From a virus (taxonomy: Duplodnaviria; Heunggongvirae; Uroviricota; Caudoviricetes): a DNA stretch of 64,000 nt. Each line of letters opens with the position of its first letter. The first letter of the stretch is position 1. Below the pieces are notes generated by a model. It was not told the DNA's origin. It did not search any database and saw nothing but the letters and a program-made list of their open reading frames with translations. Below, piece by piece: positions 2,498 to 39,289 of the stretch. The DNA lies in the IMG/VR virus record IMGVR_UViG_3300026484_000600; one strand, given 5' to 3'. The position numbers and the translations under genes were made by a program.

Positions 2498-2522
2498 AGA
2501 GGAATTATACCTCTCTAATTTT
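2496..2522. terminator. Bidirectional intrinsic terminator hairpin between convergent genes
   Basis: agagagg-aattata-cctctct, a perfect 7-bp GC-containing stem flanked by A/T runs. It sits exactly between the + gene ending at 2497 and the - gene ending at 2521. Confidence 0.6.
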
Positions 2523-13435: not shown

Positions 13436-14070
13436 TTTGCATCTCCAGAAAAGGTTACGCCTCTATTTTTCATAATATTAATATTTGTTTGGAAACTATC
13501 ATCTATTGATCCATCTGGAAATGATTTTATTCCTTCAACAGCATCCGAAAGAATATTAACTGTATAACCATTTTTGATTAAACCCATAACATTCATAAAT
13601 ACACAGTAATTTGTGGCTACACCCACAATGTCTATAATTGTTTCCTCTGGTTTAAAGGTATTTGTAAAAATAGATTTAAAGTTTGAATTTCCTTGCCAAA
13701 TATCAAAAACATCTTTTGTAAAAAACATTTCCGAATCAACTATAAATGTGTTAAATGGTATAGTTCCTTTATTGCCTCCACCATTTGCAATAAAGTTATC
13801 CCAATTTTTATATCTTGGTTTAATTTTATAAAAATTCCATCCAGTCGTCCCAAATTCACAATGAATTGAAGGAAAAATTTTAGATTCATCAGAACCACTA
13901 TATTTATCAGATGTGTGTGTATCAAAAGTATAAATTACATTTTCATATGATTCATCATGGATATAAGATTGGATATTATCAACTAATTTATCAGCATTAG
14001 GTACTGATAGAGCCCCTGTTGGGCTAGCAAAGTCAAATTGGTAGTCTACTACTATAAGTATTTTTTTCAT
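13432..14070 (-). CDS. pncA: Nicotinamidase / isochorismatase-family hydrolase (PncA-like)
   Basis: N-terminal IVVDYQFDF (catalytic Asp). Catalytic Cys context VGVATNYCV. Confidence 0.65.
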   Translation of the reverse strand: MKKILIVVDYQFDFASPTGALSVPNADKLVDNIQSYIHDESYENVIYTFDTHTSDKYSGSDESKIFPSIHCEFGTTGWNFYKIKPRYKNWDNFIANGGGNKGTIPFNTFIVDSEMFFTKDVFDIWQGNSNFKSIFTNTFKPEETIIDIVGVATNYCVFMNVMGLIKNGYTVNILSDAVEGIKSFPDGSIDDSFQTNINIMKNRGVTFSGDAK

Positions 14071-14151
14071 ATTAGTTCTCCTTAGTTATTCGTTCTAACT
14101 TATGTTAGATTCAATAACAGTTTTAATAATACACTAAGTGTGTTTTTATTT

Positions 14152-14171
14152 ATATTATATTATACAAAAAA
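14152..14171 (-). promoter_or_regulatory. Recurring extended -10 promoter-like motif (TTTTTGTATAATA on the minus strand)
   Basis: + strand tattatattatacaaaaaat equals minus-strand TTTTTGTATAATATAATA, upstream of the pncA-nadE operon. Confidence 0.35.
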
Positions 14172-14204
14172 TATACTTAAATATAAATAAAGAAAAATAA
14201 GTGA

Positions 14205-14597
14205 GTGAGTAATAAAATGTCTAAAAATAAAGAAATTAGTGATTCATTATTTGATAAATTTAATAAAATGACAAATACGGTTGTTGCCTTATATAGTTTT
14301 TTATCTTTTATTATTACGATTGGTATTGGTGGATATATTAGTTATGAAGGGATATTAGATAGTATATCGGAAAATACTGAACGAATAGAAATCACCCAAA
14401 TGATGATATTAAAAGATATAGTGCGTCGTTCTGAACATAATCCTTGTGCAGTAAGTGATACGGAATGGGATGAGTATTTGGAAAATTATAGTACTTTACA
14501 GTCTCTTAAAAAAAAATATAAAAAAATAAGTAGGAACGCTAAATGGGAACCGATAGAAAGATTAATGGAGGATACTGAACAATGCAAAAGATACTAG
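14205..14597 (+). CDS. Hypothetical membrane protein
   Basis: 130 aa with one TM segment (VVALYSFLSFIITIGIGGYISY). Confidence 0.4.
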   Translation: MSNKMSKNKEISDSLFDKFNKMTNTVVALYSFLSFIITIGIGGYISYEGILDSISENTERIEITQMMILKDIVRRSEHNPCAVSDTEWDEYLENYSTLQSLKKKYKKISRNAKWEPIERLMEDTEQCKRY

Positions 14598-15195: not shown

Positions 15196-17886
15196 TTATA
15201 ATCTTGGGTCGACACTTTCTTCTTTTTCATTTTCAAATAATAGATTGGCTATAATTTGTATTTGTTCTTTACTACCCATAGGAGCTTTAAGCATTTCTTC
15301 TCCTAATTTATACTCTGATATAGAAAGTCTTAATTTTTTAGAAATATTTTTTTGATTTAATAATCTATTAAATTTAATAGGGAATTTATAATCGTATCCA
15401 TAAATAATAGAAAGATATTCTTCATTTCTCACTTTTAAATATGGTGCAATCCAAGACTCTAATAATTTCACTTCGGGTTTTATTACGCAACCCTCCATAT
15501 TTTGATTTCGCACCAAATTATCATACCATTTTTCAGCTTTAATCAAATAATTTTTATCATCAAAATCAACAATATGTATATTATCTGAATTTAATAATTT
15601 AAAGTGTTTACTAGGAGTTAAATCCAAATTAATTATATTATTGTTTGATATTGCTTTCAATAATCTAAAACCTTTAAAATCAGTATTTGTATCTTCTCCA
15701 TAAAGGGTTATTTGTTTATTAAAAATTTTCCAAGCTTTTTTGTGGTCACTTAAAGGTATAAATCTATCAATTTCAAATTTTAAATCTTTATAAGAGTGAT
15801 ACTTGTGTCCATATTTTTTAACCAACTCTTTTTTAGCTAAAATATTCTTATCTTTTAAAAATTCTGATTTGTTAAATTCATCCTTTAAACTTATAAAAGC
15901 CTTATCAAATCCATTATCAAACAGAAAGTCAATTTCTGTTTGAATAGCTATATCCGCAGTCTTAAAATGGGTATCAATCAAACCTTTTCCTAAAAGAGCC
16001 CATGGTAATAATTCGCCATCTATAATTATCTCATCAGCATTATACATATCAAAAATATGCTTGTATTCTACTAATTTAGATGAGAATAATTCGGTTAAAT
16101 CTTCTCTTATTTTATATCCATTTCTACTTGTAGCATAACATTTTTTAATATTATCTTTAAAGAGATATAGTTGTGCTCTGGAACCCATATATTTAGGTTG
16201 TAGCACTACACTATCTACTTTATCCTTAAAATAATTGAGACCCATTTCTAAAGATTCTAGTGAATTATTTTCGATATTTTTATTTGTAGGGGAAATAGTA
16301 CCTCCTATATAACCTATACCATTTTTTACTATGTAATCTAATCTTCTTTGGTTATATGGATTTAAATCTTCAATAGATACTTCTTTCATAGCTTTACCTA
16401 TATCTTCAAACAGATTATTTCCAAAGTCGTTTCTTGCACTCTTAGGAGATAATGATTTTACACTTTGAATAAATGCTTTGCCATAACCTATACTATATCC
16501 AGTTAATTTTCCACCATATACACAACCTGTATCAATACAAACCTTATTTTTAAAAGATCTAACAGATGACTGACCCATATGACCGAATATATGAACCGGA
16601 TGGTTATTAATTGCTTCTTCTTTCAAATATGATGTTAATTCATCATTAGTCTTATCTTTGTTTTTACTTCTACTAGCACATTTATATTGGTGTTTTAATG
16701 AAATTCGATCCATCTTTTCAAGATATTTAACTTCACATGGTGCATGAGTAACTATAAAGCCTCTTTTATTTAATCCTATAAATTTAACCCATCCTTTCAT
16801 ATTATGAAAAATATCTAAAAACATAGATTTTAGCTCTTCATTTTTCTCTAGTAAAATTGCTGTATTATAGTATCTTTTTTTCTGATCTAATCGTTCTGGA
16901 GTAATTTCTAAATCTTTGTGATTTGTTATCCATTTCCAAACCATCTCTTCATGATTGCCCAATATTAATTGAAATCGATCTTGAAATTTTATCATATTTT
17001 TGTGTATGAATTTTATAGTTTCAGTTAAATCTTCTTCTGATGATTTATCTATTAAATCACCTGCAAAAATTAGTCCTATATTTTTTGTTTTAACAGTATC
17101 TATAATTTCATTGTCTTTAATTATAAAACCATATTTTTCAAGTAATTGTTTTAATTCTTGAATACATCCATGAACATCACCAATAGTAATCCAATCATAA
17201 GTACTATTTACTATTCTGTCAGTATATTTTTTCCAATCCCATACATCTACACTATAAACAGGCTTTAACATTGTAGGTGTTAAATCATATCGATTTTCCT
17301 GTTCCACTTCCAAAAGAAAATCTTTATTTTTAATTTTATGAATATTTTTATATATCCCTTTTTTTAATGTTTTTAATGTCTCCGTTTTTAATCTTTTTAT
17401 ATGTTTAGAAATAATTTTCCCATTGGTACTTGGACGTTGATATAGGCTTTCAGAAAAATTCTTTTGGTATTCATCAATATTTTTATAATCGAAAACTATA
17501 ATATCTACATTATAATTATTATCTTTTGCTATATCTAACACGTCGTTTCTAAATTTTTCGCTTAATCCGGTTGTATCTAAAATAACAAATTCTGCATTGA
17601 TTGGATAACTGGTAACAGCTCTTAATTTTGTAAATAGTATTTCGAATGCTTGTGTTGAACTCTCAGTCATAATTTCATCTATTTTACCATAGTTATAACC
17701 CAAAATATCTTTTCTAATATTATCGGAACTAATATATTGTATATTTGTCTTTAAATTATTATTAACATTGCCTTTATATTTTTGTAATGAAGGTATTAGA
17801 ATTTCATTAGCAAACGTCGTTTTACCAGAACCACTAGGTCCGACAAGCATTATTATGGTATGTACTTGGGTTTTAATTTTATTCAT
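15196..17886 (-). CDS. pnkp: Bacterial-type polynucleotide kinase-phosphatase Pnkp (kinase + metallophosphoesterase + ligase domains)
   Basis: N-terminal P-loop kinase (VGPSGSGKTTFAN). Central calcineurin-like phosphatase motifs (GDVHG, GDLIDKS, GNHE). C-terminal about 450 aa with a KYMGSR lysine motif, consistent with the Pnkp ligase domain. 896 aa. Confidence 0.7.
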   Translation of the reverse strand: MNKIKTQVHTIIMLVGPSGSGKTTFANEILIPSLQKYKGNVNNNLKTNIQYISSDNIRKDILGYNYGKIDEIMTESSTQAFEILFTKLRAVTSYPINAEFVILDTTGLSEKFRNDVLDIAKDNNYNVDIIVFDYKNIDEYQKNFSESLYQRPSTNGKIISKHIKRLKTETLKTLKKGIYKNIHKIKNKDFLLEVEQENRYDLTPTMLKPVYSVDVWDWKKYTDRIVNSTYDWITIGDVHGCIQELKQLLEKYGFIIKDNEIIDTVKTKNIGLIFAGDLIDKSSEEDLTETIKFIHKNMIKFQDRFQLILGNHEEMVWKWITNHKDLEITPERLDQKKRYYNTAILLEKNEELKSMFLDIFHNMKGWVKFIGLNKRGFIVTHAPCEVKYLEKMDRISLKHQYKCASRSKNKDKTNDELTSYLKEEAINNHPVHIFGHMGQSSVRSFKNKVCIDTGCVYGGKLTGYSIGYGKAFIQSVKSLSPKSARNDFGNNLFEDIGKAMKEVSIEDLNPYNQRRLDYIVKNGIGYIGGTISPTNKNIENNSLESLEMGLNYFKDKVDSVVLQPKYMGSRAQLYLFKDNIKKCYATSRNGYKIREDLTELFSSKLVEYKHIFDMYNADEIIIDGELLPWALLGKGLIDTHFKTADIAIQTEIDFLFDNGFDKAFISLKDEFNKSEFLKDKNILAKKELVKKYGHKYHSYKDLKFEIDRFIPLSDHKKAWKIFNKQITLYGEDTNTDFKGFRLLKAISNNNIINLDLTPSKHFKLLNSDNIHIVDFDDKNYLIKAEKWYDNLVRNQNMEGCVIKPEVKLLESWIAPYLKVRNEEYLSIIYGYDYKFPIKFNRLLNQKNISKKLRLSISEYKLGEEMLKAPMGSKEQIQIIANLLFENEKEESVDPRL

Positions 17887-23005: not shown

Positions 23006-23455
23006 TTAGAATTTTTTTAATGTTCTTTCCATATCTCGCTTGATATCACGCTCTTTAATAGTTTGTTTTTTATTATATGTTTTTTTGCCCTTAGCTAATG
23101 CCAACTGTACTTTTATTTTTTTTGTACCTTCTCGTTGATAAATTGATAAAATAATTAAAGTCAGTCCCTGTTCTTTTAATTTGCTTTTGAGTTTTAAAAT
23201 CTCTTTCTTATGCATTAATAATTTTCTATCTTGCACTTCATCAAATATTGCATAGGATGGTATGTATGTTGGATTTGAAATATGAGCTTGAGTTAAAAAT
23301 AACTCATTATTTTTCATTTTGACGTAGCTTTCTTTAAGAGAAATCGTACTATCTCTTACAGCTTTTACTTCACCACCCGACAGTACAATCCCTGCTTCAA
23401 ATGTTTCTATGATTTCATAATTAAATCTAGCTTTTTTATTTTGAGCATAAGTCAT
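23006..23455 (-). CDS. smpB: SsrA-binding protein SmpB
   Basis: NKKARFNYEIIETFEAGIVLSGGEVKAVR matches E. coli SmpB [29 protein letters not shown]. The C-terminal LALAKGKKTYNKKQTIKERD matches VAKGKKQHDKRSDIKERE. 149 aa. Confidence 0.85.
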   Translation of the reverse strand: MTYAQNKKARFNYEIIETFEAGIVLSGGEVKAVRDSTISLKESYVKMKNNELFLTQAHISNPTYIPSYAIFDEVQDRKLLMHKKEILKLKSKLKEQGLTLIILSIYQREGTKKIKVQLALAKGKKTYNKKQTIKERDIKRDMERTLKKF

Positions 23456-28209: not shown

Positions 28210-28227
28210 AGGTTTTATGCCTTTATC
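28205..28227. terminator. Bidirectional terminator hairpin between convergent genes
   Basis: gataaagg-ttttatg-cctttatc, a perfect 8-bp stem spanning the + gene stop. Confidence 0.5.
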
Positions 28228-29137
28228 CTAATAATATTATTTTATGTTGATAATCTGAAAGATTTTCTTCTTTCATAATGTCAATAAGTTCGTTTACTGT
28301 ATCTGATTTTTCTACTTCAATTCTACATCCCATCAATTCATAACCAAAATCTGTTGCGATATATTCTTCATATTTTTCAAGAGCTTCGATAACTTGACTA
28401 GCTTTGTGTACTGCCGGAACAATAAAACCGTTATCTTTAAGTATCTGATAAGTTTTTGAAGTATTTTGCCATTTACCATCAGTAGTAAGCCATTCATACG
28501 GTATAAATACTAAATTACTATCATCTTTATTATCCGCAAACATTATTGAATTAACGGCTGATGTAACGGTTTGACCTTTATTCTTTTTTGAAGGATCTTT
28601 AAGAGAAACTACACCTCTAACAGCTATATTTTTCTTAACTGAAATTTCTTGGGGAATAGATGATAAGTCCATCATATTAATAATCATTTCTGCATCATCA
28701 CCATCACCTTTATTAAGTACTCTTACGAGTTTCCCTTTTTCATATTCGCAAGAAATCATAGATCCCTCAATAGCTGGTGTTACTACTAATCCACCTAATA
28801 AACCTTCTTGAAGCCCTTCAAAATGGTCGAATACATTATTTACCCAATCAATAAAACCTGATACATCATCCACCGTATTTTCAATATAAAATGGGTGAGA
28901 GTGTTTAAATTTTTGCTGCATAGCGGAATATTTTAGATAATCAATTGGATAATTTAATTCTAAAATTTGTTCTGCTGCTTTAACAATAACGGCTTCCGGT
29001 GAATATTGTTCATTCCAATCCATTAGTTCTGCTAATTTTTCTTTGATATTTTTATTTGACCATTTGAAAAGCTTAATTTCTTCTGTCATATTTAATTTGT
29101 ATTCAAGATTTTTGAATATGTTTTGAATTACTGCCAT
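28223..29137 (-). CDS. Hypothetical protein (contains a KGDGD element; nucleotidyltransferase identity not established)
   Basis: 304-aa ORF. Only a weak KxDG-like motif. No supporting downstream ligase motifs seen. Confidence 0.4.
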   Translation of the reverse strand: MAVIQNIFKNLEYKLNMTEEIKLFKWSNKNIKEKLAELMDWNEQYSPEAVIVKAAEQILELNYPIDYLKYSAMQQKFKHSHPFYIENTVDDVSGFIDWVNNVFDHFEGLQEGLLGGLVVTPAIEGSMISCEYEKGKLVRVLNKGDGDDAEMIINMMDLSSIPQEISVKKNIAVRGVVSLKDPSKKNKGQTVTSAVNSIMFADNKDDSNLVFIPYEWLTTDGKWQNTSKTYQILKDNGFIVPAVHKASQVIEALEKYEEYIATDFGYELMGCRIEVEKSDTVNELIDIMKEENLSDYQHKIILLG

Positions 29138-29787: not shown

Positions 29788-30060
29788 TTACAAACCTATT
29801 TTATTAATTATTGGTGCAAGATATTTTGCTATTATTGATTCTGTAAATGGAAATGGAGAGTTATTATCAGAAAGTAATTTATATTGGTCAATTACTTTCA
29901 ATGCTTTTAATCCTGCATTTTTCCCATCGCAAATAGCTGATTGAGTTGTATCATCAATAGTACTTATAATAACTTCATAATCACATTTAGTTGCTAAAAA
30001 ATCCAATGATGAATCATCATCATATTTTGAAATTATCTTGACCATATTTTTATCCTTCAT
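29788..30060 (-). CDS. Hypothetical protein
   Basis: 90-aa ORF. Confidence 0.4.
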   Translation of the reverse strand: MKDKNMVKIISKYDDDSSLDFLATKCDYEVIISTIDDTTQSAICDGKNAGLKALKVIDQYKLLSDNNSPFPFTESIIAKYLAPIINKIGL

Positions 30061-31165
30061 ATGAATTTATTAAATCATCGATTGATGTGCCCAAATCTTT
30101 ATCTTTCTTTTTTTGAGCTGATGCTACTAGTTCATCACAAAGATGACAGTCCCAACATTCAAATTGACAGGTTCTAATATGTTTTCGCCATAATTGTAAC
30201 TTATTTTGGTCAACTTTTAAATCTTCAATTTGCCCTCTAATCGAAATATCATGTAATTCTTCATCGCCGTTAATATAACTTTCAATAAATTTTATAGTAT
30301 CATTTAATAAACCAAAGCCTTCTCTACCATGTGTTTTTATTACATCTACATACTCTAAAAGTCTTTCAAAGTCTTCCCGATATGGTGGTATATTGCCTAT
30401 TTTAAATGAATAAGCTGGGTCTTCTAATCTCCATTTTGGACAACTAACTTCACTAATTTTTTGATAAAAATACGGTTTATCCGTTCCTGGTTGTTTACTA
30501 CCACTAGCATTATTAATTGTATAATGTTCGTTCATTACCGGGCATTTACCTCTACATCCTTCATTAGCAAGTAATGCAATAGGTACATATTTTCCAGTTT
30601 CTTTTTCAAATTTAAGTTGAGCTTTTTTAATTCTCTTTAGCATTTCTTCATCGCGCAAAAGAATTCTATCAATGTTAATATAATCGTATCCTGCTTCACA
30701 TGCAGTCCAAAAGTCTTGAGCTGTTGCTACTCTTTTTAAAACCGTATTTTTTACTTGTAATTCTGGAAATTTTTCTTTAAATACACCAGTCATCATCCAA
30801 TGATTATGGGGTTGTGTCATGCTTCTCAGACCAGCATCATATAAAAATTGTAAGTTAGAACAAAAGATTTCTAAATTTTCAGCAGTAGGCGGTACATTTA
30901 CATTATTAAAAGTAGCAGAAACTCTAACTCCAGTCGCTTGTTCTAAGGCTAAAGCATTATTAAACATTTGAACTAATGCATCATTATCAAAATTTGCTCC
31001 CATCGCATCTTGCATGAATGGTGGAATTCTACTTGTAAAATAAACATCATAAATCCAATCAGCATTCTTTTTTAAGAATGGTACAAAAATATTTTCAAAG
31101 TCTTCTTTTGAAGTGTATGGGTTAAGTGGGATAGAAAAAATTTTTTTCTTTTTTGGTATTGCCAA
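30050..31165 (-). CDS. Cys-rich protein with a peptidase U32-like N-terminal region (RlhA/TrhP-like RNA hydroxylation family candidate)
   Basis: The N-terminal pattern (SIPLNP...NADWIYDVY...RVSATFNNVNVP...KEKFPELQVKNTV) parallels the U32/YhbU ELLSPAG...GADAVY...KFYVVVN...REHFPEMPIHLSVQANAVN. There are multiple Cys clusters (CRGKCPV, CQFECWDCHLC), but the canonical U32 Cys signature is not exact. Confidence 0.35.
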   Translation of the reverse strand: MAIPKKKKIFSIPLNPYTSKEDFENIFVPFLKKNADWIYDVYFTSRIPPFMQDAMGANFDNDALVQMFNNALALEQATGVRVSATFNNVNVPPTAENLEIFCSNLQFLYDAGLRSMTQPHNHWMMTGVFKEKFPELQVKNTVLKRVATAQDFWTACEAGYDYINIDRILLRDEEMLKRIKKAQLKFEKETGKYVPIALLANEGCRGKCPVMNEHYTINNASGSKQPGTDKPYFYQKISEVSCPKWRLEDPAYSFKIGNIPPYREDFERLLEYVDVIKTHGREGFGLLNDTIKFIESYINGDEELHDISIRGQIEDLKVDQNKLQLWRKHIRTCQFECWDCHLCDELVASAQKKKDKDLGTSIDDLINSYEG

Positions 31166-31204
31166 AATATACTCCTTATTTGTTTCTCTTTATTATACAA
31201 TTTT

Positions 31205-31399
31205 TTACGTTAAATATTGTCTAATTTGAGAAGCAGACCATTGAGGAATTTCGCTATAACCAATTTTAATCATTTCTTCAAATTCATTTTCTAATTTAAA
31301 AATTTTATAAATATTCTTGAGTTTCTGTTTGTTGATTTCTACTTCAATACCGCAAGGAAATGTTAAAATATTATTTTTGTATGTGAATTGTTTTTTCAT
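31205..31399 (-). CDS. Hypothetical protein
   Basis: 64-aa ORF. Confidence 0.3.
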   Translation of the reverse strand: MKKQFTYKNNILTFPCGIEVEINKQKLKNIYKIFKLENEFEEMIKIGYSEIPQWSASQIRQYLT

Positions 31400-31508
31400 T
31401 CTATATGTCCATATTTTTAATTTATTTATATAGAATTATTAGGGTGTATAAAGATAAAAAGAGAGAGGATTTATCTAGGTTAAAAACCTAGATATTTAGT
31501 TATAAGGA

Positions 31509-32471
31509 TTATTTCATATCCATAATAAATTGTGATTTTTCTCCACCAACATAAGTAGGTACCGATCCATTCCATTTTTCAACAGTTTGAATTTTGATAA
31601 CCTTGTCAGTTAATGATGAACTAAGTAATTTGTTTGCTTTTGATTGTGCGTTTGCTTCAACCAAAATAGCATCAGCTCTACCTTGAGCAGCAATTTTAAC
31701 TGCATTAGCTTCACCGTGTGCTTTAGCTTCTCTTGCTTTGGCTTCGTTTTGTGCTTTCTTAATCAGCTCTTCCGATTTTAGAGCATCTTGTTTGGCTGCC
31801 TGCACTTCCAACATTTTATTAGCAATTTCCTTTGGTACTATAATATCTTTAAGATTGATATTTACCAATTTAAAATAAGGATTTTTAGAGTAACTTTCAT
31901 TAAGTTTTTCTGTAAGATATTTTTCCACTTCTGGTCTTTTATCCATAATGGTGTCAACACTAAATCTCGAAATTGTAGCCTGAACTGCTTCTCTGTTTAC
32001 CTGCTTAACTTTCTTATAAAAAGCATTTTCAAAATCACCATCATTTTTGTACATTTCAGCTAATTGGTCTGCTACAGGTTTTACCTCAATGCTCAATGCT
32101 AACTTAATTGGAATACCTTTTTTATCTAAGCCCTGCAATACTGGCTCAAAAATAAGTAATTCAGAATCCTCTTTATTTGCTTCTGTTCTTGAATAATTGA
32201 TAAGCTTTGGACGAATTGTGTCTATCTCAATACTCTGATAGATTGGTATAAAGAAATGATAACCGGGTTGTATTTCCGTCATATCATATTTTGTACCTGT
32301 CTTCATAACGCCCCGTTCACCGTCATTTACGATTGCAAATCCAGTTTTTGTGACTGCCATAAATCCTAAGATTATAACAAGTCCAATACCAATAACTACT
32401 GTCCAACCAGCCGTCTTCATAAGCTTTTCCATTTTAACTCCTAAATTTTTATTAGGATTTATTATACACAA
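31509..32471 (-). CDS. SPFH/band-7 (HflC/stomatin-like) membrane protein
   Basis: N-terminal TM helix, then the SPFH core (GERGVMKTGTKYDMTEIQPGYHFFIPIYQSIEIDTIRP) and a coiled-coil Ala/Lys/Glu-rich tail. Confidence 0.6.
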   Translation of the reverse strand: MCIINPNKNLGVKMEKLMKTAGWTVVIGIGLVIILGFMAVTKTGFAIVNDGERGVMKTGTKYDMTEIQPGYHFFIPIYQSIEIDTIRPKLINYSRTEANKEDSELLIFEPVLQGLDKKGIPIKLALSIEVKPVADQLAEMYKNDGDFENAFYKKVKQVNREAVQATISRFSVDTIMDKRPEVEKYLTEKLNESYSKNPYFKLVNINLKDIIVPKEIANKMLEVQAAKQDALKSEELIKKAQNEAKAREAKAHGEANAVKIAAQGRADAILVEANAQSKANKLLSSSLTDKVIKIQTVEKWNGSVPTYVGGEKSQFIMDMK

Positions 32472-32489
32472 AAAAAACTTATAATCAAC

Positions 32490-34667
32490 TTAAATATTAT
32501 TTTTTATGAATTTTTTAAGATTATCTAATGTTAAGGGTTTTGAAAAATAATAACCTTGATAAAAATCACAACCTAATCTATCAAGAATTTCTTTTTGTTT
32601 TGAATTTTCAATTCCTTCCGCTATAATAATAGTGTTGAAAATTTTACTCATTTTAATAATTACTTCAGCCATACTTTTAGAGATATTATCATGTACAATA
32701 TCATCAACAAATGCTTTATCAATCTTTATTTCATCAATAGTTAAATTTTTAACAGATGATAATGATGAGTATCCTGTTCCGAAATCATCAATAGATATTT
32801 TCACTCCTAATTGATGTAACCCATCTATTATTTGTTCCATATGAGTTAAATCCAAAATAAATAGATTTTCGGTTACTTCTAATGTAATATTATGTGGGTT
32901 AATATTAAATTGATTCATTTTATTTTTAATTTTTTGGACAAAACCATCTTCCATAAATTGTTTGATTGAAATATTGATTGAAATATTAAAATCCTTTGGA
33001 ACTATTTTTTTAAATTTATTAATATCATTAAATACATAATCTAAAATATAATCACCCAAAATAATTATATTTTCATTCTTTTCAGCAATTTTAATAAATG
33101 TTTCAGGACTTATTTGACCTAATTTTGAATTGTTCCATCGAACTAATGCTTCTACACCCACTATTTTATTTTTAGTATTTAGTTGTGGTTGATACACCAT
33201 GAATATCTCTTTTAAAATAATACCTTCCAATAATTTATTTTCTATTAAATGTTCTTCTTTAAAGGTTTCTTCTATATTTTTATCATAGAATACAATAGTA
33301 TTTTGTTTTTCTTTTGCTTTATATAAAGCTAAATCAGCTTTATATTTTACACTATGAAGATCTTCAAATCCCTCACATTGTGCAATACCAATACTCATAG
33401 TAGTTTTATGTTCATATTTGAATTTATCATTAGTTATATTTAATAAACTTTTAGCAAAACTTATCACCTTTTCTTTGTTCATTTCTCTAGTAATAATTAT
33501 AAATTCATCTCCACTAAAACGTATCAGCAAATCATCAGAAGAAATATTTTTTTTAAGTTCTGTTGCTATGGAAATCAAGAAATTATCACCGTAATTGTGT
33601 CCAAAGTTATCATTTATAAATTTAAAATTATCTAAATCTAAAAACAACATACTATAATGTTTATAATTGACTATTTTTTTATTTAGGTAATATCTATTTC
33701 CAACGTGTGTTAATGGATCATGAATAGAAATATATTCTAATTCATTTTTTCGTTCATTATTAATTTTATTAATAATGAACATCATTATAATAAAACTTAT
33801 ATTAAAAGCAAACCAAATAGATACTGCATTTATTAACCAATCATTTTTTAAAGAATCTATAATTTTTGAAGGGAACCCTATAACGAGCCATAGATCATAT
33901 CTTTCAATAAATTTTACACCGACCTTATATTTTGTATTATTTAATGATGTAGTGGTTAATGATATTTGATTTGTTTTTTTAAATAAATTATGTACATCGA
34001 TTTTTATAATAGAATCTATTTTAAAATCATTAATATTTGAATATTGAATTCTAGAGGAATTATTTTTAATTAATAAAATTATAGAATCATTGTGTATTTT
34101 ATTTGTAAATAAATTAGAAAATGACTTATTTATATTAATATCTACTGCAAGTACACCATACACTTTTGAATTTTTCCTAATACTTTTTCTTATTGGGATT
34201 ATTAGTTGGTTTGTTGGTCTAAATAAATATGAACGTCCTAAAATTGATGACTTGCATTTTAACGTTTTAAGAAATGACTCTTTAGTTTTTGGATTGGAGA
34301 TAAAATTAGGTATCTTTTTTACATCAACATTCGACGAATTTATTAATATGTCTCCATCGGGCGATATAAAACCATACCCTACTGCATCAGGTTCCAATTC
34401 TAACGCCATATTCAAATATTTTTGCTTATTGGGATAGGTTAAAATATTATTTCCTAACATTGTAAGTATGTTATTATATTTGTTAAATACATCTTCGGAT
34501 GCAATAGACAAAATACTTAGTTCGTGAAGAATCTTATTATCAATTTCATCCATAATATCTTTATTATTTGATTTATAACTAAAATAAAATATAATAGAAG
34601 TAGATATAATAACAAAAGCGATAACTAATAAACTTCCTAATTTTTCTAAAAAATATTTAATATTCAT
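32490..34667 (-). CDS. Membrane sensor protein with GGDEF (degenerate SGDEF) and EAL domains (c-di-GMP phosphodiesterase, possibly also cyclase)
   Basis: N-terminal TM, a periplasmic-like region and a second TM. The GGDEF region carries LFLDLDNFKFINDNFGH and RFSGDEFIII. The EAL domain carries YQPQ, EALVRW, DDFGTGYSSL and KIDKAFV signatures. Confidence 0.75.
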   Translation of the reverse strand: MNIKYFLEKLGSLLVIAFVIISTSIIFYFSYKSNNKDIMDEIDNKILHELSILSIASEDVFNKYNNILTMLGNNILTYPNKQKYLNMALELEPDAVGYGFISPDGDILINSSNVDVKKIPNFISNPKTKESFLKTLKCKSSILGRSYLFRPTNQLIIPIRKSIRKNSKVYGVLAVDININKSFSNLFTNKIHNDSIILLIKNNSSRIQYSNINDFKIDSIIKIDVHNLFKKTNQISLTTTSLNNTKYKVGVKFIERYDLWLVIGFPSKIIDSLKNDWLINAVSIWFAFNISFIIMMFIINKINNERKNELEYISIHDPLTHVGNRYYLNKKIVNYKHYSMLFLDLDNFKFINDNFGHNYGDNFLISIATELKKNISSDDLLIRFSGDEFIIITREMNKEKVISFAKSLLNITNDKFKYEHKTTMSIGIAQCEGFEDLHSVKYKADLALYKAKEKQNTIVFYDKNIEETFKEEHLIENKLLEGIILKEIFMVYQPQLNTKNKIVGVEALVRWNNSKLGQISPETFIKIAEKNENIIILGDYILDYVFNDINKFKKIVPKDFNISINISIKQFMEDGFVQKIKNKMNQFNINPHNITLEVTENLFILDLTHMEQIIDGLHQLGVKISIDDFGTGYSSLSSVKNLTIDEIKIDKAFVDDIVHDNISKSMAEVIIKMSKIFNTIIIAEGIENSKQKEILDRLGCDFYQGYYFSKPLTLDNLKKFIKNNI

Positions 34668-34704
34668 ATTTAATTAAGCCCACTTTTTAAAATATTTATA
34701 GTTA

Positions 34705-35223
34705 TTAAATAAATAATTGGGGGTTTACAAATGAAAAATTTTTAGTATTTAGTTGCATAATTTTATCGTCATATTCAAATAAAAATTCTTGTGGGTTTTT
34801 AATATAATACCAAATCCCCAACCAATAAATATCATTTAAAATTTGTGTTTGGAATTGTTCAATATAGGTACTACCATATTTATTAGATTGTCGTAATTTA
34901 CTAAAATATATAGCAGCTTTAAATTCTATATAATTTTTTGGGCGAATCTGATTTATCATTTCAACTGCAGACATTACTTCTTCATCAAAGTCTTCTGAAG
35001 TTAAGTGATTATTTTTTATAAGTGTCCATAAAATAAATCCAAGATCATTTTTTAGTGATTTAATATTTGATTCTTTAATGTCAAACCCAAATTTCATGGG
35101 CATTTTGAATTCTTGACCTATTAAATATTCAAATCCTTGTATATTTTTTAATTGATTTAACTCATTTTTGGTTTTTTTCAGTTCATGTTCTAATAGCTGA
35201 TATTCAAATTTACTCACACTCAT
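34705..35223 (-). CDS. Hypothetical protein
   Basis: 172-aa ORF overlapping the SAH gene by 14 nt. Confidence 0.4.
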   Translation of the reverse strand: MSVSKFEYQLLEHELKKTKNELNQLKNIQGFEYLIGQEFKMPMKFGFDIKESNIKSLKNDLGFILWTLIKNNHLTSEDFDEEVMSAVEMINQIRPKNYIEFKAAIYFSKLRQSNKYGSTYIEQFQTQILNDIYWLGIWYYIKNPQEFLFEYDDKIMQLNTKNFSFVNPQLFI

Positions 35224-35734
35224 TTTTTTGAAACTCCATACATGCGTTTTCTATCTCATTTATAATTTTTAATTGTCGTTCGGTTATATCGGGGCGATTT
35301 TTTTTAAGAAAATCCATCATATTTAATGTTTTTTTAACATATGATATCCCTGGTTTATCTAAAATATTTGAAAGTCGATCTATTAATTTTATTATAAAAG
35401 CATATTTAGACATTTTAATCATTTTTTGTTTTAAGTATTCATTCTTACCCAATTGTTTGATTGCTATAGGATCTGATGTTAATTCCACAACTATTGATGC
35501 TACTAAGGGACCAAATTCTCGTTCTAATTCAGAATATGTACACTCCGTATCTTCTAAAACATCATGTAGTAAACCAGCACATTGTAATTCATCTAACTTT
35601 TTAGAACCATTTTTATATTTAGCAATAAGTTGAGATACGATAATTGGGTGTGTTACGTAGGGTAATCCAGAACCTCTCCGTTCTTGACCTTTGTGCTTTT
35701 CAGCTGCAAATTGTATGGCTTTAATAACTAACAT
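35210..35734 (-). CDS. Small alarmone hydrolase (RelA/SpoT-type HD-domain (p)ppGpp hydrolase)
   Basis: AIQFAAEKHKGQERRGSGLPYVTHPIIVSQLI...AGLLHDVLEDT aligns with the SpoT hydrolase-domain core (AHEGQTRSSGEPYITHP...AALLHDVIEDT). 174 aa, hydrolase-only. Confidence 0.7.
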   Translation of the reverse strand: MLVIKAIQFAAEKHKGQERRGSGLPYVTHPIIVSQLIAKYKNGSKKLDELQCAGLLHDVLEDTECTYSELEREFGPLVASIVVELTSDPIAIKQLGKNEYLKQKMIKMSKYAFIIKLIDRLSNILDKPGISYVKKTLNMMDFLKKNRPDITERQLKIINEIENACMEFQKNECE

Positions 35735-35785
35735 ACTCTGCTCCTTGTATTATATTTAAAAATAATATCCAAAATATACTTAAAA

Positions 35786-35974
35786 TCATATTAATTTTTC
35801 TATCTGATCAACCCAACAATAATTTTCCCAGCATGCGAAGTCTGGTTCTTCATAATTAACATAATCTTTCCAAAAACGTTGATAAACTTTTTGTATTCCC
35901 CATTTCTTAATACCAAAGAATGTTTTTGGAAAGATAAATAATCTAGTTTTTAATCTAAAAGTTCCATTTTTCAT
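35786..35974 (-). CDS. Hypothetical protein
   Basis: 62-aa ORF, downstream of an extended -10-like motif. Confidence 0.3.
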   Translation of the reverse strand: MKNGTFRLKTRLFIFPKTFFGIKKWGIQKVYQRFWKDYVNYEEPDFACWENYCWVDQIEKLI

Positions 35975-36129
35975 TTAAATAAATAACTCAGGATTACTAT
36001 TTAATAAGTGTTCTTCAAAACGTTTAAGTAATTTATTATTCATAATTTTATTATACAATTAACTAAATTAATAAAAAATACCTTTTTATACTATAAATAA
36101 TATAGTAATAAAGAAGATAGGAAATAATT

Positions 36130-37866
36130 ATGAAAATAAAAGATATATTGGATATATTTTATCCTAATGGACTTGATAGACCCTATAACAAGAATGTATT
36201 GAGAAAACAACCAGAATTAAAACAAATATTAATTAAGAAAACTGATTTTTTAAAAAAGGAAGCGACTATTTCAGAACGTCTTTATGTTTTAAGACATAAT
36301 ATTTGTGTATCGCCAATATGTCTTGAGTGTGGATCACCAGTAAAATTCAAAAGTCCTAAAGAAGGTTATGCAAAATTCTGTTCTAAGAAATGTACTTCAA
36401 AATCATCAATAACTAAAATAAAAAGAAATAATACGTTTAACGAAAAATATGGTGGTATTGGTTTTGGGTCAAAAGAAATTTTAGATAAAGTATATGAAAC
36501 CAATTTAGATAGATTTGGGACATCTATTCCACAACAAACAAATATAATAAAAGATAAAATTAAAAATTCCTGGAAGGATTTAGATAAAGAAATTATTTTA
36601 AAAAAGAGAAGAGAAACTAACTTAGAAAAATACGGGACAGAATATCATCAACAGAATAGTGACCAAAAAGAAAAATTACTTAAATCAATGATTAAAAATA
36701 ATGGTGGTATTGGTCTTTCTTCAGATAAAATCAAATCTAAAGTTAAAGCGACAATGCAAAAAAAATATGGTGTAGACAATCCCATGCAGTCGGATAAAAT
36801 CAAATCTAAAGTTAAAGCGACAATGCAAAAAAAATATGGTGTGGATAATTACAAAGAATTAGATAATGATGCATGGAATAATTTTAAAAAATATTTTGAT
36901 CCAGAAACATTTCAATTAGACTTATCTTTGCAAGAAATGGAAGAAAAATATCAAGTGCGATATTACACCATATCTAATTTTTTGCAGAAGTATGGTTTTG
37001 AATTTTCAAAAATATCATCATATGAACAATCATTACGTAATATATTACCTGATGATTTTGAATTTAATAACCGAACAATTTTAGATGGTAGAGAACTAGA
37101 TTTTTATTCAAAAAGTCGAAATTTAGCTATTGAATTTAACGGACTTTTATATCATTCTGAAAAATATGGAAAAGACAAGAATTATCATAAATCAAAGACG
37201 GATGGATGTATATCTAAGGATATATCATTGATACACATATTTGAAAATGAATGGTTGTTTAAACGTAATATCGTAGAATCTATAATTAATACCAAGTTGA
37301 ATAATTTTTCTCATAGAATTTATGCTAGAAAATGTCAAATTAAAGAACTCGATACCAAGATTAAAAATGATTTTTTAGAAGAAAATCATATTCAAGGAAA
37401 AGATAGCTCCAAAGTAAAATTAGGATTATTTTATGAGGGTGATTTAGTACAAGTTATGACATTTGGTCATTCTCGATTTAATAAAAAATATCAATATGAA
37501 ATGCATAGATCTTGTTCAAGAATTGGTTATCAAATAATCGGCGGATTAAATAAATTGTGGTCATACTTCATTAAAAATTATAAACCTAAATCTGTTGTTA
37601 CGTATGCTGATAGAAGATATTTTGATGGGAGGAGTTATTTAAAATTAGGGTTTAATTTTTCTCATACCTCACCATCTAATTTTTGGATATTTGGTCCTGG
37701 TATAAAAGGTGTTGATTCAAGATTAAATTGGCAAAAACACAAGCAGAAAGATAAATTAAAAAAGTTTGACCCAACTTTAACAGCATGGGAAAATATGATT
37801 GATAATGGTTATAATAGAATATGGGATAGTGGGAATAATGTATATATTTGGAAAGCGGAAGAGTAA
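36130..37866 (+). CDS. Putative free-standing homing-endonuclease-like protein (Zn-ribbon, tandem KYG repeats, C-terminal Vsr/DUF559-like PD-(D/E)XK domain)
   Basis: N-terminal CLECGSPVKF...FCSKKC. Repeated KYGG/KYGV modules, including an exact 23-aa duplication. A C-terminal RELDFYSKSRNLAIEFNGLLYHSE motif (the DF...AIEFNG..H endonuclease signature). Convergent with and abutting the intein-bearing gp41 gene. Confidence 0.45.
   Translation: MKIKDILDIFYPNGLDRPYNKNVLRKQPELKQILIKKTDFLKKEATISERLYVLRHNICVSPICLECGSPVKFKSPKEGYAKFCSKKCTSKSSITKIKRNNTFNEKYGGIGFGSKEILDKVYETNLDRFGTSIPQQTNIIKDKIKNSWKDLDKEIILKKRRETNLEKYGTEYHQQNSDQKEKLLKSMIKNNGGIGLSSDKIKSKVKATMQKKYGVDNPMQSDKIKSKVKATMQKKYGVDNYKELDNDAWNNFKKYFDPETFQLDLSLQEMEEKYQVRYYTISNFLQKYGFEFSKISSYEQSLRNILPDDFEFNNRTILDGRELDFYSKSRNLAIEFNGLLYHSEKYGKDKNYHKSKTDGCISKDISLIHIFENEWLFKRNIVESIINTKLNNFSHRIYARKCQIKELDTKIKNDFLEENHIQGKDSSKVKLGLFYEGDLVQVMTFGHSRFNKKYQYEMHRSCSRIGYQIIGGLNKLWSYFIKNYKPKSVVTYADRRYFDGRSYLKLGFNFSHTSPSNFWIFGPGIKGVDSRLNWQKHKQKDKLKKFDPTLTAWENMIDNGYNRIWDSGNNVYIWKAEE
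36721..36858. repeat. 69-nt direct tandem repeat (2 copies) inside the homing-endonuclease-like gene
   Basis: gataaaatcaaatctaaagttaaagcgacaatgcaaaaaaaatatggtgt occurs twice with a 69-nt period. It encodes SDKIKSKVKATMQKKYGVDN twice. Confidence 0.75.
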
Positions 37867-37877
37867 TCTACTCTTCC
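37857..37877. terminator. Perfect 9-bp hairpin spanning both stop codons of convergent genes
   Basis: ggaagagta-atc-tactcttcc. The + gene stop TAA and the - gene stop (CTA on +) both lie inside the stem. Confidence 0.4.
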
Positions 37878-39289
37878 TTCGATGTAATTAATTTATCGCC
37901 AACTTTAAGTGAAGCCATAATACAGTCTTCCACTATTTTTCCATCATCTAAGACTTTTGGAAAAATATGTCTTCCAGACACTTTGATAGTTTTTCCACTT
38001 TTTAAAGTGATTTCATATACTTCTTGTTCTTCTGGTTCAGTAACGGCTGTTACAGTTCTAAATTCATTATTAGTTCCAAGAACTTTATCACCTACATTGA
38101 TTTCTTCAATATTTATTTTACCGCTTGGGGTTGTTACTTTTTCTCCAAATGCTAGACATCGGTTGTATTGGTCTGCCGTCCATACAATAGTGTCAAAGAG
38201 TGTTGCTACAGCTCTTAATTCTTCAGATACATATTTATCTTTTTCAAACATTCCCTGCCAATTTTTCCCATTTGGTGTCATTAGACCCGCATAATCTAGA
38301 ATAATAATAGGGACAGTATTATATTTTTGTAGATAATTTCTTACAAATAATTCCAATTTCATTGCACTTAGTGTATTGGGTTGATAAAAATGAACGGTAA
38401 ATCTACCATAGCCTTTATTATCACATTTCTTTAGATGATTATAAATTTCCATTTCAGATTTTTCAATTTGGTGTGTTGGTATTTTAGTCGAATGTGTTAT
38501 ATATCTTTTCATGATTTTTTCTTCTTTTAGTTCCAACGAAATATATATAACATCTCTTTTCATTTGGATATAATTCCATGCTAAATTTATTAATCCTATT
38601 GATTTACCACCGCCTGATTTAGCTAGTAAATAATTTAAACTAGGAATTGTTACACCTCCATCTAATTTATCATCTACGTTCCACCATCCAGTAGGAATTG
38701 TAGCTTCAGTTGATGTCAGCATTTTAAATAAATCTCGAAAATTATCTTTATCAGTATCTATGGTTACACCTAGTTTTGTATCGATATCAACATTTACTGC
38801 TTCTTTAATTTTCTTTTCAATAGTTCCATAATCTTCTTCTTCTAAAAGCTCGATACTATCTTCGATTGCACCTTTCATACTCATATTTTTTATAAATGCA
38901 TTTAGATAATCTTCAAGATATTCTGTTGGCCAAGGTTTATTTATATCTAACCAGTCATCATGCACATTATCTAAGTTTAACTCTAATAATATAGCATCTT
39001 CTGGAGGAATACTTTTATATAAATCATAATAATCGATCATGAAATCAACTATTAATTTATTGATTTTTGACTCAAAAAAATCTTTATCTAAAAATGTTAT
39101 ACCCTTAACAAATAACTCTGGATTATTAATAAGTTGAGCAAGTAAAACCCGTTCTTTATCTTCAATATCTAATAGTTTACCTTCCGAACGTTCAACATTC
39201 TTTTTTTTCTTTTTCTTTTTCGATGATGATTCTGCTTCTAATTCGGCTAAAGCGTCTTCATATTCTGTATCATCTATTTGCTCATCCAT
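37868..39289 (-). CDS. gp41/DnaB-family replicative helicase whose ORF terminates in a 96-aa split-intein N-fragment
   Basis: DnaB motifs IPTGWWNVDDKLDGG, Walker A LAKSGGGKSIGL and the arginine-finger region DQYNR. Then CLAFGEKVTTPSGKINIEEINVGDKV (intein block A, Cys1) and a SGRHIFP block-B-like segment, followed by a stop. No C-extein follows. Confidence 0.75.
   Translation of the reverse strand: MDEQIDDTEYEDALAELEAESSSKKKKKKKNVERSEGKLLDIEDKERVLLAQLINNPELFVKGITFLDKDFFESKINKLIVDFMIDYYDLYKSIPPEDAILLELNLDNVHDDWLDINKPWPTEYLEDYLNAFIKNMSMKGAIEDSIELLEEEDYGTIEKKIKEAVNVDIDTKLGVTIDTDKDNFRDLFKMLTSTEATIPTGWWNVDDKLDGGVTIPSLNYLLAKSGGGKSIGLINLAWNYIQMKRDVIYISLELKEEKIMKRYITHSTKIPTHQIEKSEMEIYNHLKKCDNKGYGRFTVHFYQPNTLSAMKLELFVRNYLQKYNTVPIIILDYAGLMTPNGKNWQGMFEKDKYVSEELRAVATLFDTIVWTADQYNRCLAFGEKVTTPSGKINIEEINVGDKVLGTNNEFRTVTAVTEPEEQEVYEITLKSGKTIKVSGRHIFPKVLDDGKIVEDCIMASLKVGDKLITSKEE
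37871..38158 (-). mobile_element. Split-intein IntN (blocks A and B) at the end of the gp41/DnaB gene
   Basis: 96 aa starting with Cys directly after the helicase QYNR motif. The gene ends without blocks F/G or a C-extein. Confidence 0.6.

Follow-up and report, generated by a model that had tools for sequence, protein, structure and literature searches.

Why would a phage carry a complete membrane sensor with the two domains of cyclic di-GMP (c-di-GMP) metabolism, and what is its gene doing between those for a small alarmone hydrolase (SAH) and an SPFH protein? We addressed this question in a 64,000-nt stretch of tailed-phage DNA (Caudoviricetes; IMG/VR record IMGVR_UViG_3300026484_000600), hereafter called the window, by examining a block of five close-packed open reading frames (ORFs) on its minus strand (31509-35974). 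In reading order, these ORFs are orf62, the SAH gene, orf172, the GGDEF-EAL sensor gene, and the SPFH gene. For comparison we used a sister phage, a syntenic 224-kb IMG/VR contig that carries the whole block and whose sensor is 83% identical. A previous reading of this DNA, made from the sequence only, had described the sensor, the SAH, and the SPFH protein as a second-messenger module with which the phage degrades (p)ppGpp and c-di-GMP, or possibly makes c-di-GMP. The explanation we favor, to which we give a probability of roughly 60%, is that the block is a set of co-oriented accessory (host-takeover) genes in which an ancestral SAH and an SPFH scaffold are accompanied by a captured sensor that acts as a signal-gated phosphodiesterase (PDE). 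The element of interest is the sensor itself, a complete dCache-GGDEF-EAL protein that was apparently captured recently by, and is under selection in, a jumbo phage.

The cytoplasmic half of the sensor carries the evidence on its output. Pfam matched both catalytic domains of the 725-aa ORF (EAL, E=1.5e-64; GGDEF, E=1.4e-31), and this half of the protein aligned with the PA0575 and MorA tandems (E about 1e-66; 31-33% identity). The solved GGDEF-EAL structures matched in the PDB were PA0575, MorA, and DosP, and the tandems that we compared were those of P. aeruginosa PA0575 (5m3c), MorA (4rnh), RbdA/PA0861 (5xgb), and E. coli DosP (9cmf). The modeled EAL domain superposed on the EAL domain of BifA with a root-mean-square deviation (rmsd) of 1.6 A and a TM score of 0.94, and the modeled GGDEF-EAL part likewise superposed on solved PDE structures. 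The best NCBIfam similarities of the sensor were to GepA, the PRK10060 c-di-GMP phosphodiesterase model, DibA, and DosP.

Residue conservation was evaluated in an alignment of 116 near-full-length family members, comprising the two phage copies and 114 bacterial homologs. EAL residues E506, R510, N565, E597, E600, D627, D628, K648, E684, and Q704 are identical in both phages and in all 114 bacterial proteins, and E687 is present in both phage copies and 113 of the 114 (the remaining sequence has a gap). The motifs line up with the same motifs in PA0575 and MorA. According to studies of TBD1265 and RocR, the metal, substrate, and general-base set of EAL domains reportedly consists of the EAL Glu, the EALxR Arg, the NxS Asn, ExxE, and DD, together with the KxD Lys, the EGxE Glu, and the QG Gln. 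Loop 6, DFG(T/A)GYSS, is needed for EAL dimerization and activity, and it is intact in the sensor (D628-F-G-T-G-Y-S-S635). With the whole catalytic set and loop 6 present, the EAL signature motifs are complete, as the sequence-only reading had stated, and the domain is predicted to be a competent phosphodiesterase. We also estimated the ratio of nonsynonymous to synonymous substitution rates (dN/dS) between the window and the sister phage by the Nei-Gojobori method (dS about 0.5-0.8). For the EAL domain, dN/dS was 0.12.

The signature of the GGDEF domain is S385GDEF in both phages, which agrees with the SGDEF variant recorded earlier and departs from the canonical GG(D/E)EF. As SGDEF is found in 29 of the 114 bacterial homologs, including most of the closest, it was inherited from the bacterial family and is not phage-specific. 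Residue 370, an Arg in 94% of the bacterial homologs, is Glu in both phage copies (R370E). Position 455 is Gln in the window and Leu in the sister phage; 101 of the 114 bacterial homologs (89%) have Lys or Arg there. In the alignment it coincides with the Arg of the phosphate-binding segment 'AKxxGR', and the replacement there may have functional effects. We take the Lys and Arg of this segment to be K442 and R446 of PleD and, from the alignment, position 455 to correspond to R446. In addition, a conserved Pro after residue 431 is deleted in both phage copies. GGDEF domains typically have an RxxD allosteric I-site five residues before the signature, although cyclase activity does not require it; in the sensor the corresponding sequence is S376-S-D-D379, in which the Arg is missing. 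From the S385GDEF signature, the changes at positions 370 and 455, the lost Pro, and the absent I-site, we expect that the GGDEF domain probably has weak or no cyclase activity and plays a regulatory role.

The N-terminal half of the protein has the layout of an extracytoplasmic receptor. Two hydrophobic transmembrane (TM) segments, TM1 at about aa 9-31 and TM2 at about aa 277-300, enclose a 245-residue periplasmic region. In a full-length AlphaFold2 (AF2) model made with 20 homologs (mean predicted local distance difference test score, or pLDDT, of 85), a long N-terminal helix is followed by alpha/beta (PAS-like) modules at residues 95-187 and 196-266, of which the latter is modeled less confidently. 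A helix spanning residues 267-315 then crosses the membrane directly into the GGDEF domain, with no HAMP domain. When searched alone, the periplasmic domain matched Pfam dCache_1 over profile positions 23-236 of 240 (E=1.1e-5, 25.5 bits, gathering score 45), and 13 of 14 members of the sensor family matched dCache_1, with a best E of 8e-11. A family profile of the domain matched the KinD sensor (4jgo, 5e-5) and a chemoreceptor ligand-binding domain (4xmq, 1e-4). A double-Cache-like fold is thus supported, with a match of the phage domain that lies below the curated Pfam threshold. Overall, the protein resembles bacterial membrane dCache-GGDEF-EAL proteins of about 750 aa, which are arranged as TM, dCache_1, TM, GGDEF, and EAL. 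It differs from this family in being encoded by a phage, in having at most 39% identity to any bacterial protein, and in R370E, the Gln or Leu at position 455, and the one-residue deletion.

The sensor domain has a dN/dS of 0.17, and the sensor as a whole 0.13. Every gene of the block and every domain of the sensor is under purifying selection (dN/dS 0.03-0.17), and this selection on all parts argues against a decaying passenger gene.

Under the explanation we favor, events would run as follows. The SAH would strip the 3'-pyrophosphate from (p)ppGpp, (p)ppApp, or tRNA modified by toxic small alarmone synthetases (toxSAS), and this activity would blunt the stringent response or abortive-infection defenses based on RelA/SpoT homologs (RSH). 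The lineage of the window and its sister would have taken up a complete bacterial dCache-TM-SGDEF-EAL gene between the SAH and SPFH genes. During infection, the sensor would insert into the host inner membrane, where its periplasmic dCache domain could bind a small ligand, and the signal would pass via TM2 and the continuous helix to the GGDEF-EAL tandem. As the net output, the intact EAL domain would hydrolyze c-di-GMP to pGpG, while the SGDEF domain would act mainly as a dimerization or nucleotide-sensing regulator. Lower c-di-GMP would hold the infected cell in a motile, matrix-free, and metabolically active state. All of these functional statements are predictions. Degradation of c-di-GMP and alarmones remains the best-supported reading of the sequence, as had been proposed; the accompanying suggestion that the phage possibly makes c-di-GMP appears less likely in light of R370E and the Gln or Leu at position 455.

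A second component of the block is the 174-aa HD protein. Its sole Pfam matches are HD_4 (E=3.7e-13) and HD (E=3.5e-8), and it has no synthetase, TGS, or ACT domain. Since its match to TIGR00691 (spoT_relA) is confined to model positions 1-120 (SAH residues 6-125) and no other domain is present, we assign it from its sequence as a small alarmone hydrolase, that is, a hydrolase-only RSH. The best PDB matches were human MESH1 (3nr1, 5e-16), the N-terminal hydrolase domains of Rel proteins, and bacterial SAHs (E about 1e-15 to 1e-16). Residues R19, H29, H57-D58, E61-D62, D119, and N123 align onto the catalytic positions of MESH1, presumably R24, H35, H61-D62, E65-D66, D122, and N126, and all are present. 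The proposed match to the SpoT hydrolase core is thus borne out, and alignment, in which missing catalytic residues would have counted against the earlier reading, recovered all catalytic residues of both the EAL and the HD domain.

The SAH gene is preceded by an AAGGAG Shine-Dalgarno sequence and has a dN/dS of 0.05 relative to the sister phage. The protein collection contains at least 189 metagenomic homologs (55-94% identity), several of them on phage-like contigs, one of which is 496 kb long. Among curated phage records, 243 matched the SAH, 128 of them over 80% or more of its length. The SAH is 59% identical to its counterparts in the Vibrio phage pv27 group and 46% identical to that of BcepSaruman; in pv27 and BcepSaruman the protein is annotated as 'metal-dependent phosphohydrolase'. 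Within its phage group the SAH gene is ancestral and widely conserved; it belongs to an already-known class and, on its own, is an ordinary phage gene. Like the SAHs of the Salmonella phages PVP-SE1 (PbcSpo) and SSU5 (PaSpo), it is a stand-alone hydrolase core of about 170-180 aa. Known phage SAHs likewise consist of a RelA/SpoT core without synthetase or regulatory domains and are found in large lytic-type phages. The SAH of the window neighbors an SPFH gene and a c-di-GMP enzyme, a setting not described for the characterized phage SAHs.

What the SAH acts on bears on the most serious alternative. The phage SAHs of PVP-SE1 and SSU5 neutralize all toxSAS toxins tested (PMC7229694), and the SAHs MESH1 and ATfaRel restore tRNA pyrophosphorylated at its 3' end by toxSAS (bioRxiv 10.1101/2021.04.30.441581). 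An 'HD-alarmone PDEase' is also listed among jumbo-phage counter-defense genes (PMC7824862). By analogy, the substrate may be (p)ppApp or 3'-pyrophosphorylated tRNA instead of ppGpp. One explanation, therefore, is that the SAH is an RNA-repair or counter-defense enzyme with no link to c-di-GMP, which removes the tRNA 3'-pyrophosphate left by toxSAS of the CapRel, PhRel, or FaRel2 type or degrades (p)ppApp. In addition to these precedents, two related contigs (L090 and L091) carry the SAH within 4-6 kb of Thg1-like and NUDIX genes, and the window holds many genes for RNA repair and translation rescue, namely an Rnl1-like ligase, a polynucleotide kinase (PNK)/phosphatase fusion, and transfer-messenger RNA (tmRNA) with SmpB. 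However, ppGpp hydrolysis fits the catalytic core just as well, the sequence does not reveal specificity, and no toxSAS is known for the host. This explanation concerns one gene only and is compatible with the one we favor, which names the same substrates; we give it a substantial chance, though clearly short of even.

The SPFH protein was assigned by a match to Band_7 (E=7.6e-21, 75.4 bits against a Pfam cut-off of 23.6, for ORF 31509-32471). With a score above the gathering threshold and an N-terminal anchor, a hydrophobic TM segment at about aa 3-36, the domain call made from sequence alone stands. The protein also matched phrog_200 (3.9e-38). It is 96% identical to the sister copy (dN/dS 0.03), has homologs on four other viral contigs (66-86% identity), and belongs to a class found in 85 curated phage records from many hosts. 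Its scores fell well below the equivalog thresholds for HflK (37.7 vs 159.4 bits) and HflC (15.5 vs 427 bits). There is a single SPFH gene in the block, with no second SPFH subunit, and Pfam detected no NfeD-like partner among the SPFH neighbors scanned. Phage SPFH proteins (phrog_200) carry the annotations 'lipoprotein', 'prohibitin family', or 'HflC/HflK family'. Like them, the protein of the window starts with a TM segment that leads into the SPFH domain, and it ends in a coiled-coil-like region rich in Ala, Lys, and Glu. It is unlike the SPFH proteins of curated phages in that identity to them is just 22-26%. We regard it as a membrane scaffold conserved in the phage subgroup and, like the SAH, as an ordinary phage gene.

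Do these genes form a module, or are they neighbors? The trio of SAH, GGDEF-EAL, and SPFH was found in the window and one sister phage only. On two related contigs (L172 and L174), the SAH gene lies 0.4-1.1 kb upstream of the SPFH gene with 2-4 tiny ORFs between them and no GGDEF-EAL gene. Three others (L089, L090, and L091) carry the SAH (72-81% identical) without SPFH or GGDEF-EAL, and the genes that follow it are small ORFans or homologs of window genes located 24 kb off. Another contig (L173) has SPFH and no SAH within the 12.9 kb around it, and phages pv27 and BcepSaruman have the SAH and no SPFH. No SPFH gene adjoins the bacterial sensor homologs. Among 79 other IMG/VR GGDEF-EAL loci, none has this arrangement of SAH, orf172, and SPFH, and one has a distant, divergent SPFH gene. 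As relatives show SAH with SPFH, SAH alone, and SPFH alone, there is no conserved three-part unit, and the claim of a module is not supported.

A stronger form of that claim is that the SAH, orf172, the sensor, and the SPFH protein act jointly and require adjacency, with the SPFH protein scaffolding or protecting the sensor and the two hydrolases jointly resetting ppGpp and c-di-GMP. Such integration would fit the co-orientation and the tight or overlapping spacing of the genes between the DnaB gene and a conserved hairpin, the maintenance of the entire block under purifying selection in the sister phage, the recurrence of SAH-SPFH proximity on L172 and L174, and the fact that the SPFH protein and the sensor are both membrane proteins. 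We nonetheless consider it unlikely, since the GGDEF-EAL gene is missing from the relatives in which SAH sits beside SPFH; the SAH occurs without SPFH on L089, L090, and L091 and in pv27 and BcepSaruman, as does SPFH without SAH within the 12.9 kb around it on L173; a homolog of orf172 lies in an unrelated context; the bacterial sensor homologs lack an SPFH neighbor; and the one SPFH gene near the 79 other viral loci is in divergent orientation.

Instead, the trio looks like an ancestral SAH/SPFH neighborhood plus a recently inserted GGDEF-EAL gene. Recent capture is indicated by the restriction of the sensor to the window and its sister, while L172 and L174 keep SAH and SPFH without it. In the simplest history, the position of the SAH beside DnaB is old, its proximity to SPFH is subgroup-wide, and the sensor entered in the ancestor of the window and the sister phage. 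Perhaps orf172 entered together with it.

As to where the sensor came from, a search of 5.8 billion proteins returned the sister-phage copy as the only relative with more than 39% identity. The closest bacterial relatives, which have the full architecture and are 36-39% identical, include those of Sulfurimonas, Hydrogenovibrio, and a Campylobacteraceae metagenome-assembled genome, and one cluster of close relatives is named Halarcobacter/Arcobacter. One close homolog lies on a bacterial contig with a GC content of 26.7%, compared with 27% for the phage and 22.6% for the sensor gene. We infer a donor similar to Arcobacteraceae or to other low-GC bacteria of marine origin, and an Arcobacteraceae-like marine host is no more than a reasonable guess. 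A scan of genome contigs aimed at the host was uninformative, as the matches listed were generic relatives of the cytoplasmic domains from many phyla. A neighbor-joining tree of the 116 homologs placed the phage pair among partially aligned long branches; we judged it unreliable and did not use it.

Several observations weigh against a recently captured, signal-gated phosphodiesterase. A search for insertion scars flanking the GGDEF-EAL gene, as direct or inverted repeats, returned short AT-rich chance matches only, and the evidence for insertion comes from a small number of metagenomic contigs. The periplasmic domain of the phage protein is about 25 residues shorter than those of its bacterial homologs. 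The host assignment depends on GC content and the nearest homologs of one gene. Finally, the GGDEF domain has a dN/dS of 0.10, a constraint as strong as that on the EAL domain, which fits either a catalytic or a regulatory role. Its metal- and guanine-binding residues are intact (D344, D346, N352, D361, R383, and K452 are all kept), which would be compatible with a bifunctional enzyme. SGDEF motifs support cyclase activity in some proteins, and some SGDEF and AGDEF proteins are active cyclases.

The kept residues and the strong purifying selection on the GGDEF domain also favor the possibility that the sensor acts on balance as a diguanylate cyclase, or as a bifunctional enzyme switched by its ligand, and raises c-di-GMP under some conditions, for instance to immobilize the host, induce matrix, or exclude other phages. 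Moreover, the closest solved tandem, MorA (4rnh), was deposited as a 'tandem diguanylate cyclase - phosphodiesterase'. On the other side, the first Gly of the signature is replaced by S385, both phages have lost the Lys or Arg that most homologs place at the phosphate-binding position, and the widely conserved R370 is Glu. The EAL domain is intact throughout, phosphodiesterases are its protein's best matches in NCBIfam, and GGDEF-EAL tandems with an intact EAL domain usually behave as PDEs. We therefore think a cyclase improbable.

The captured-sensor explanation requires that the gene belong to a phage. The window is part of a 221.5-kb phage contig, which encodes the identical sensor protein, and the gene order recurs in independent assemblies from JGI (221.5 kb), Logan (SRR7968107), IMG/VR (224 kb), and ENA (140 kb). 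GC content is 24-30% throughout the window, and the phage average is 27.1%. Flanking genes encode a DnaB-like helicase, a homing endonuclease, a dCTP deaminase, a ligase-like protein, topoisomerase II, and PhoH, as well as an Rnl1-like RNA ligase, a PNK/phosphatase fusion, SmpB, and an Rfam-confirmed tmRNA. The window and Vibrio phage pv27 have in common a Ro-like RNA-binding protein (51% identity), an ATPase (39%), and the SAH (59%). By these sequence similarities, the phage is a distant relative of the pv27 group of roughly 190-kb phages. This uncultured jumbo phage measures about 221 kb with 27% GC, and the block lies in the part of it devoted to replication and nucleotide metabolism. Although most 'phage' database matches to the sensor are mislabeled bacterial contigs or unannotated fragments, it is very improbable that the GGDEF-EAL gene is bacterial DNA foreign to the phage (a mis-assembly, a prophage flank, or a mis-binned fragment), since the gene order is repeated in the four independent assemblies, the GC content of the gene is at or below the phage average, phage genes lie on both sides and keep their synteny in the sister phage, and the sensors of the two phages are far closer to each other (83%) than to any bacterial protein (at most 39%).

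How rare is such a gene among phages? In a curated collection of 50,697 phage records, none covers at least 80% of the sensor, and the 121 partial matches are mostly mislabeled bacterial contigs or unannotated gut fragments. PHROGs includes a GGDEF-EAL family, phrog_11823, that matches the sensor over aa 191-723 (E=4e-120), and at least 428 IMG/VR stretches, which are unvetted, encode GGDEF-EAL relatives. Many of the IMG/VR matches are presumably proviruses of isolate genomes, as judged from the identifier format. The earlier description of a full-length GGDEF-EAL sensor as unusual in a phage is thus true of curated genomes and less so of IMG/VR. We found no description of a phage-encoded GGDEF or EAL enzyme in the literature searched, a weak negative given its incomplete coverage. 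GGDEF-EAL genes on large phage-like contigs are recurrent and, in that literature, undescribed. Such contigs, of 115-259 kb and not vetted for host contamination, include L012, L027, L058, L025, L064, L072, and L085. Their GGDEF-EAL proteins have other N termini (PAS domains, multi-TM regions, or none). The genes of L012, L027, and L058 are flanked mostly by ORFans, and L012 has a tail-fiber-like gene 4.5 kb upstream.

If the predictions hold, the sensor would clearly exemplify the import by a large phage of an entire bacterial signal-transduction protein, with receptor, transmembrane relay, and enzymatic output. Virus-encoded sensing, for which the quorum-sensing receptors of temperate phages are so far the best-known case, would then also include environmental chemoreception by a jumbo phage. 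In a more speculative reading, which we hold to be less likely than not, a virulent jumbo phage would bear its own extracytoplasmic receptor, so that the virus instead of the host senses a periplasmic cue; the resulting c-di-GMP degradation would steer motility versus attachment, while the co-transcribed SAH would avert stringent arrest. There are precedents for such interference: small phage peptides bind the cyclase YfiN (PMC8085984), and phage Dap1 inhibits the PDE DipA, according to the passage of PMC12846349 that cites this work. Moreover, c-di-GMP-dependent surface glycans can act as phage receptors (PMC8669472). The small interfering proteins and the glycan receptors make it plausible that selection would favor a phage that lowers c-di-GMP. 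As with the YfiN-binding peptides and Dap1, the outcome would be viral manipulation of host c-di-GMP; those proteins are small binders of host enzymes, whereas this phage would supply a complete sensor-enzyme. The relatives that have the SAH/SPFH neighborhood and no sensor constitute a natural experiment, assays should be fast for two small soluble domains, the EAL fragment and the SAH, and the Halarcobacter/Arcobacter lead provides a concrete host group for isolation attempts.

One of the relatives also encodes flagellar proteins. The 24.5-kb contig L089 (ena:ERZ27262662:k141_1123239), whose SAH is 81% and whose DnaB pieces are 81-83% identical to those of the window, carries genes at 12396-14531, about 5 kb downstream of the SAH, that match Pfam FliM, FliMN_C (two genes), and FliG_M, which are flagellar switch proteins. 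These FliM, FliN, and FliG genes are not present in the window and would fit a phage clade that manages host motility.

The features of the block are listed in the table. The three genes named by the sequence-only reading are minus-strand ORFs where it placed them, except for the start of the SPFH gene: since ATG 32432 is preceded by an AGGAG Shine-Dalgarno sequence and yields the same 307-aa call in the sister phage, it is most likely the start, rather than TTG 32471. A fourth gene in the interval, orf172, had been overlooked.

Features of the block at 31509-35974 and of the hairpin that follows it
Feature	Coordinates	Strand	Length	Remarks
orf62	35786-35974	minus	62 aa	First gene of the co-oriented block; ORF call
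SAH (HD protein)	35210-35734	minus	174 aa	Pfam HD_4, HD
orf172	34705-35223	minus	172 aa	ORF call; start overlaps end of SAH gene by 14 nt
dCache-like–SGDEF–EAL membrane sensor	32490-34667	minus	725 aa	Pfam GGDEF, EAL; TM1, TM2
Sensor periplasmic domain, aa 32-276	33840-34574	minus		dCache-like fold
Sensor GGDEF domain, about aa 313-470	33258-33731	minus		S385GDEF motif; RxxD I-site missing
Sensor EAL domain, about aa 471-725	32493-33257	minus		Predicted c-di-GMP phosphodiesterase
SPFH/Band-7 protein	31509-32432	minus	307 aa	Pfam Band_7, phrog_200
Palindromic hairpin ATCTAGGTT-TTT-AACCTAGAT	31472-31494			15 nt past SPFH stop codon

No intergenic gap in the block exceeds about 57 nt, and in the sister phage the start of orf62 overlaps the stop codon of DnaB. 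The hairpin is the only terminator-like site in 30900-36300. Its sequence is unchanged in the sister phage, where the surrounding intergenic DNA has diverged, and its T-run is displaced, making it non-canonical as an intrinsic terminator; it is a probable 3' end or stabilizer of the transcription unit. Given the overlap of orf62 with DnaB in the sister phage, the small gaps, and the conserved hairpin after the SPFH gene, the genes of the block are very likely co-transcribed. A sigma-70 promoter scan gave fewer matches than shuffled sequence and was uninformative in this AT-rich DNA. No c-di-GMP or ppGpp riboswitch was detected at Rfam gathering scores in the whole window or at E<=1 in 31000-36200. 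No gene of the block matched a PADLOC defense-system family, and a near-identity DNA search of the block against the 50,697 phage records returned no match.

Two genes of the block are without a family. orf62 is 90% identical to its sister-phage copy (dN/dS 0.06) and had no match in Pfam, PHROG, NCBIfam, or PADLOC searches. orf172 is 88% identical to the sister copy (dN/dS 0.10) and matched no family in Pfam, PHROGs, NCBIfam, PADLOC, or PDB profile searches. A PDB match of orf172 to a small alarmone synthetase (SAS; E=0.33) was rejected as chance; no SAS motif such as EVQIRT is present, and the AF2 model of orf172 (pLDDT 47) was unusable. There are 4 close homologs, and a profile search yielded 78 representatives, mostly of 115-145 aa. 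A 51%-identical homolog on contig L088 has unrelated neighbors, with neither SAH nor GGDEF-EAL alongside. The 111-118-aa genes that follow the SAH on L089, L090, and L091 were ruled out as orf172 homologs (hhalign probability <1%). A C-terminal motif, NP[EQ][YLF]F[IL] or HPE[YF]F[IL], ends many otherwise dissimilar small ORFs in this phage group, with two in the window (orf172, 34705-35223, and an ORF at 10901-11239), at least 3 on L172 (6679-7485), and at least 8 on L174 (3598-8875). Among the 78 remote relatives of orf172, the motif tail is found in the 6 closest only.

Upstream of the block, a homing-endonuclease gene of about 1.9 kb is inserted on the opposite strand between DnaB and orf62 in the window (36130-37866, plus strand; 578 aa; phrog_3339/559); it is not present in the sister phage. 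The DnaB-like helicase ORF (37868-39289, minus strand) ends in an intein-N-like sequence (...ADQYNR followed by CLAFGEKVTTPSGK...) with no C-extein after it, which suggests a split or intein-interrupted helicase. In the relative L089, the helicase is encoded by two separate genes.

Downstream of the hairpin, a 371-aa Cys-rich protein (30050-31165, minus strand) matches phrog_1458 (5.5e-92) and has no Pfam match. It is the most conserved gene of the neighborhood (99% identical to the sister copy, dN/dS 0.012), and a homolog lies downstream of SPFH on L173. The proteins of about 385-393 aa that follow the SAH in pv27 and BcepSaruman proved not to be homologous to it.

Elsewhere, RNA-repair and RNA-handling genes are dense in the window (2521-4020, 4870-6273, 8468-10324, and 15196-17886, all on the minus strand). 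The set includes the Ro-like RNA-binding protein (phrog_850), the Rnl1-like RNA ligase (phrog_562), an 896-aa polynucleotide-kinase/metallophosphatase fusion, and Thg1-like and NUDIX proteins, the last two by homology to Pfam-matching genes of L090 and L091. A full-length tmRNA (4335-4715, plus strand; Rfam RF00023, 114 bits) has the ARAGORN tag peptide ANTKLYIPQTARVAA, and a 149-aa ORF (23006-23455, minus strand) has a sister-phage counterpart that matches Pfam SmpB; by sequence, the two would form a virus-borne trans-translation pair. Two adjacent paralogs of about 440 aa (58042-59352 and 59365-60696, minus strand) both match phrog_10773. Finally, a 304-aa protein (28223-29137, minus strand), far shorter than LigA, matches the adenylation part alone of NAD-dependent DNA ligase (phrog_3359), and its sister-phage copy matches Pfam DNA_ligase_aden.

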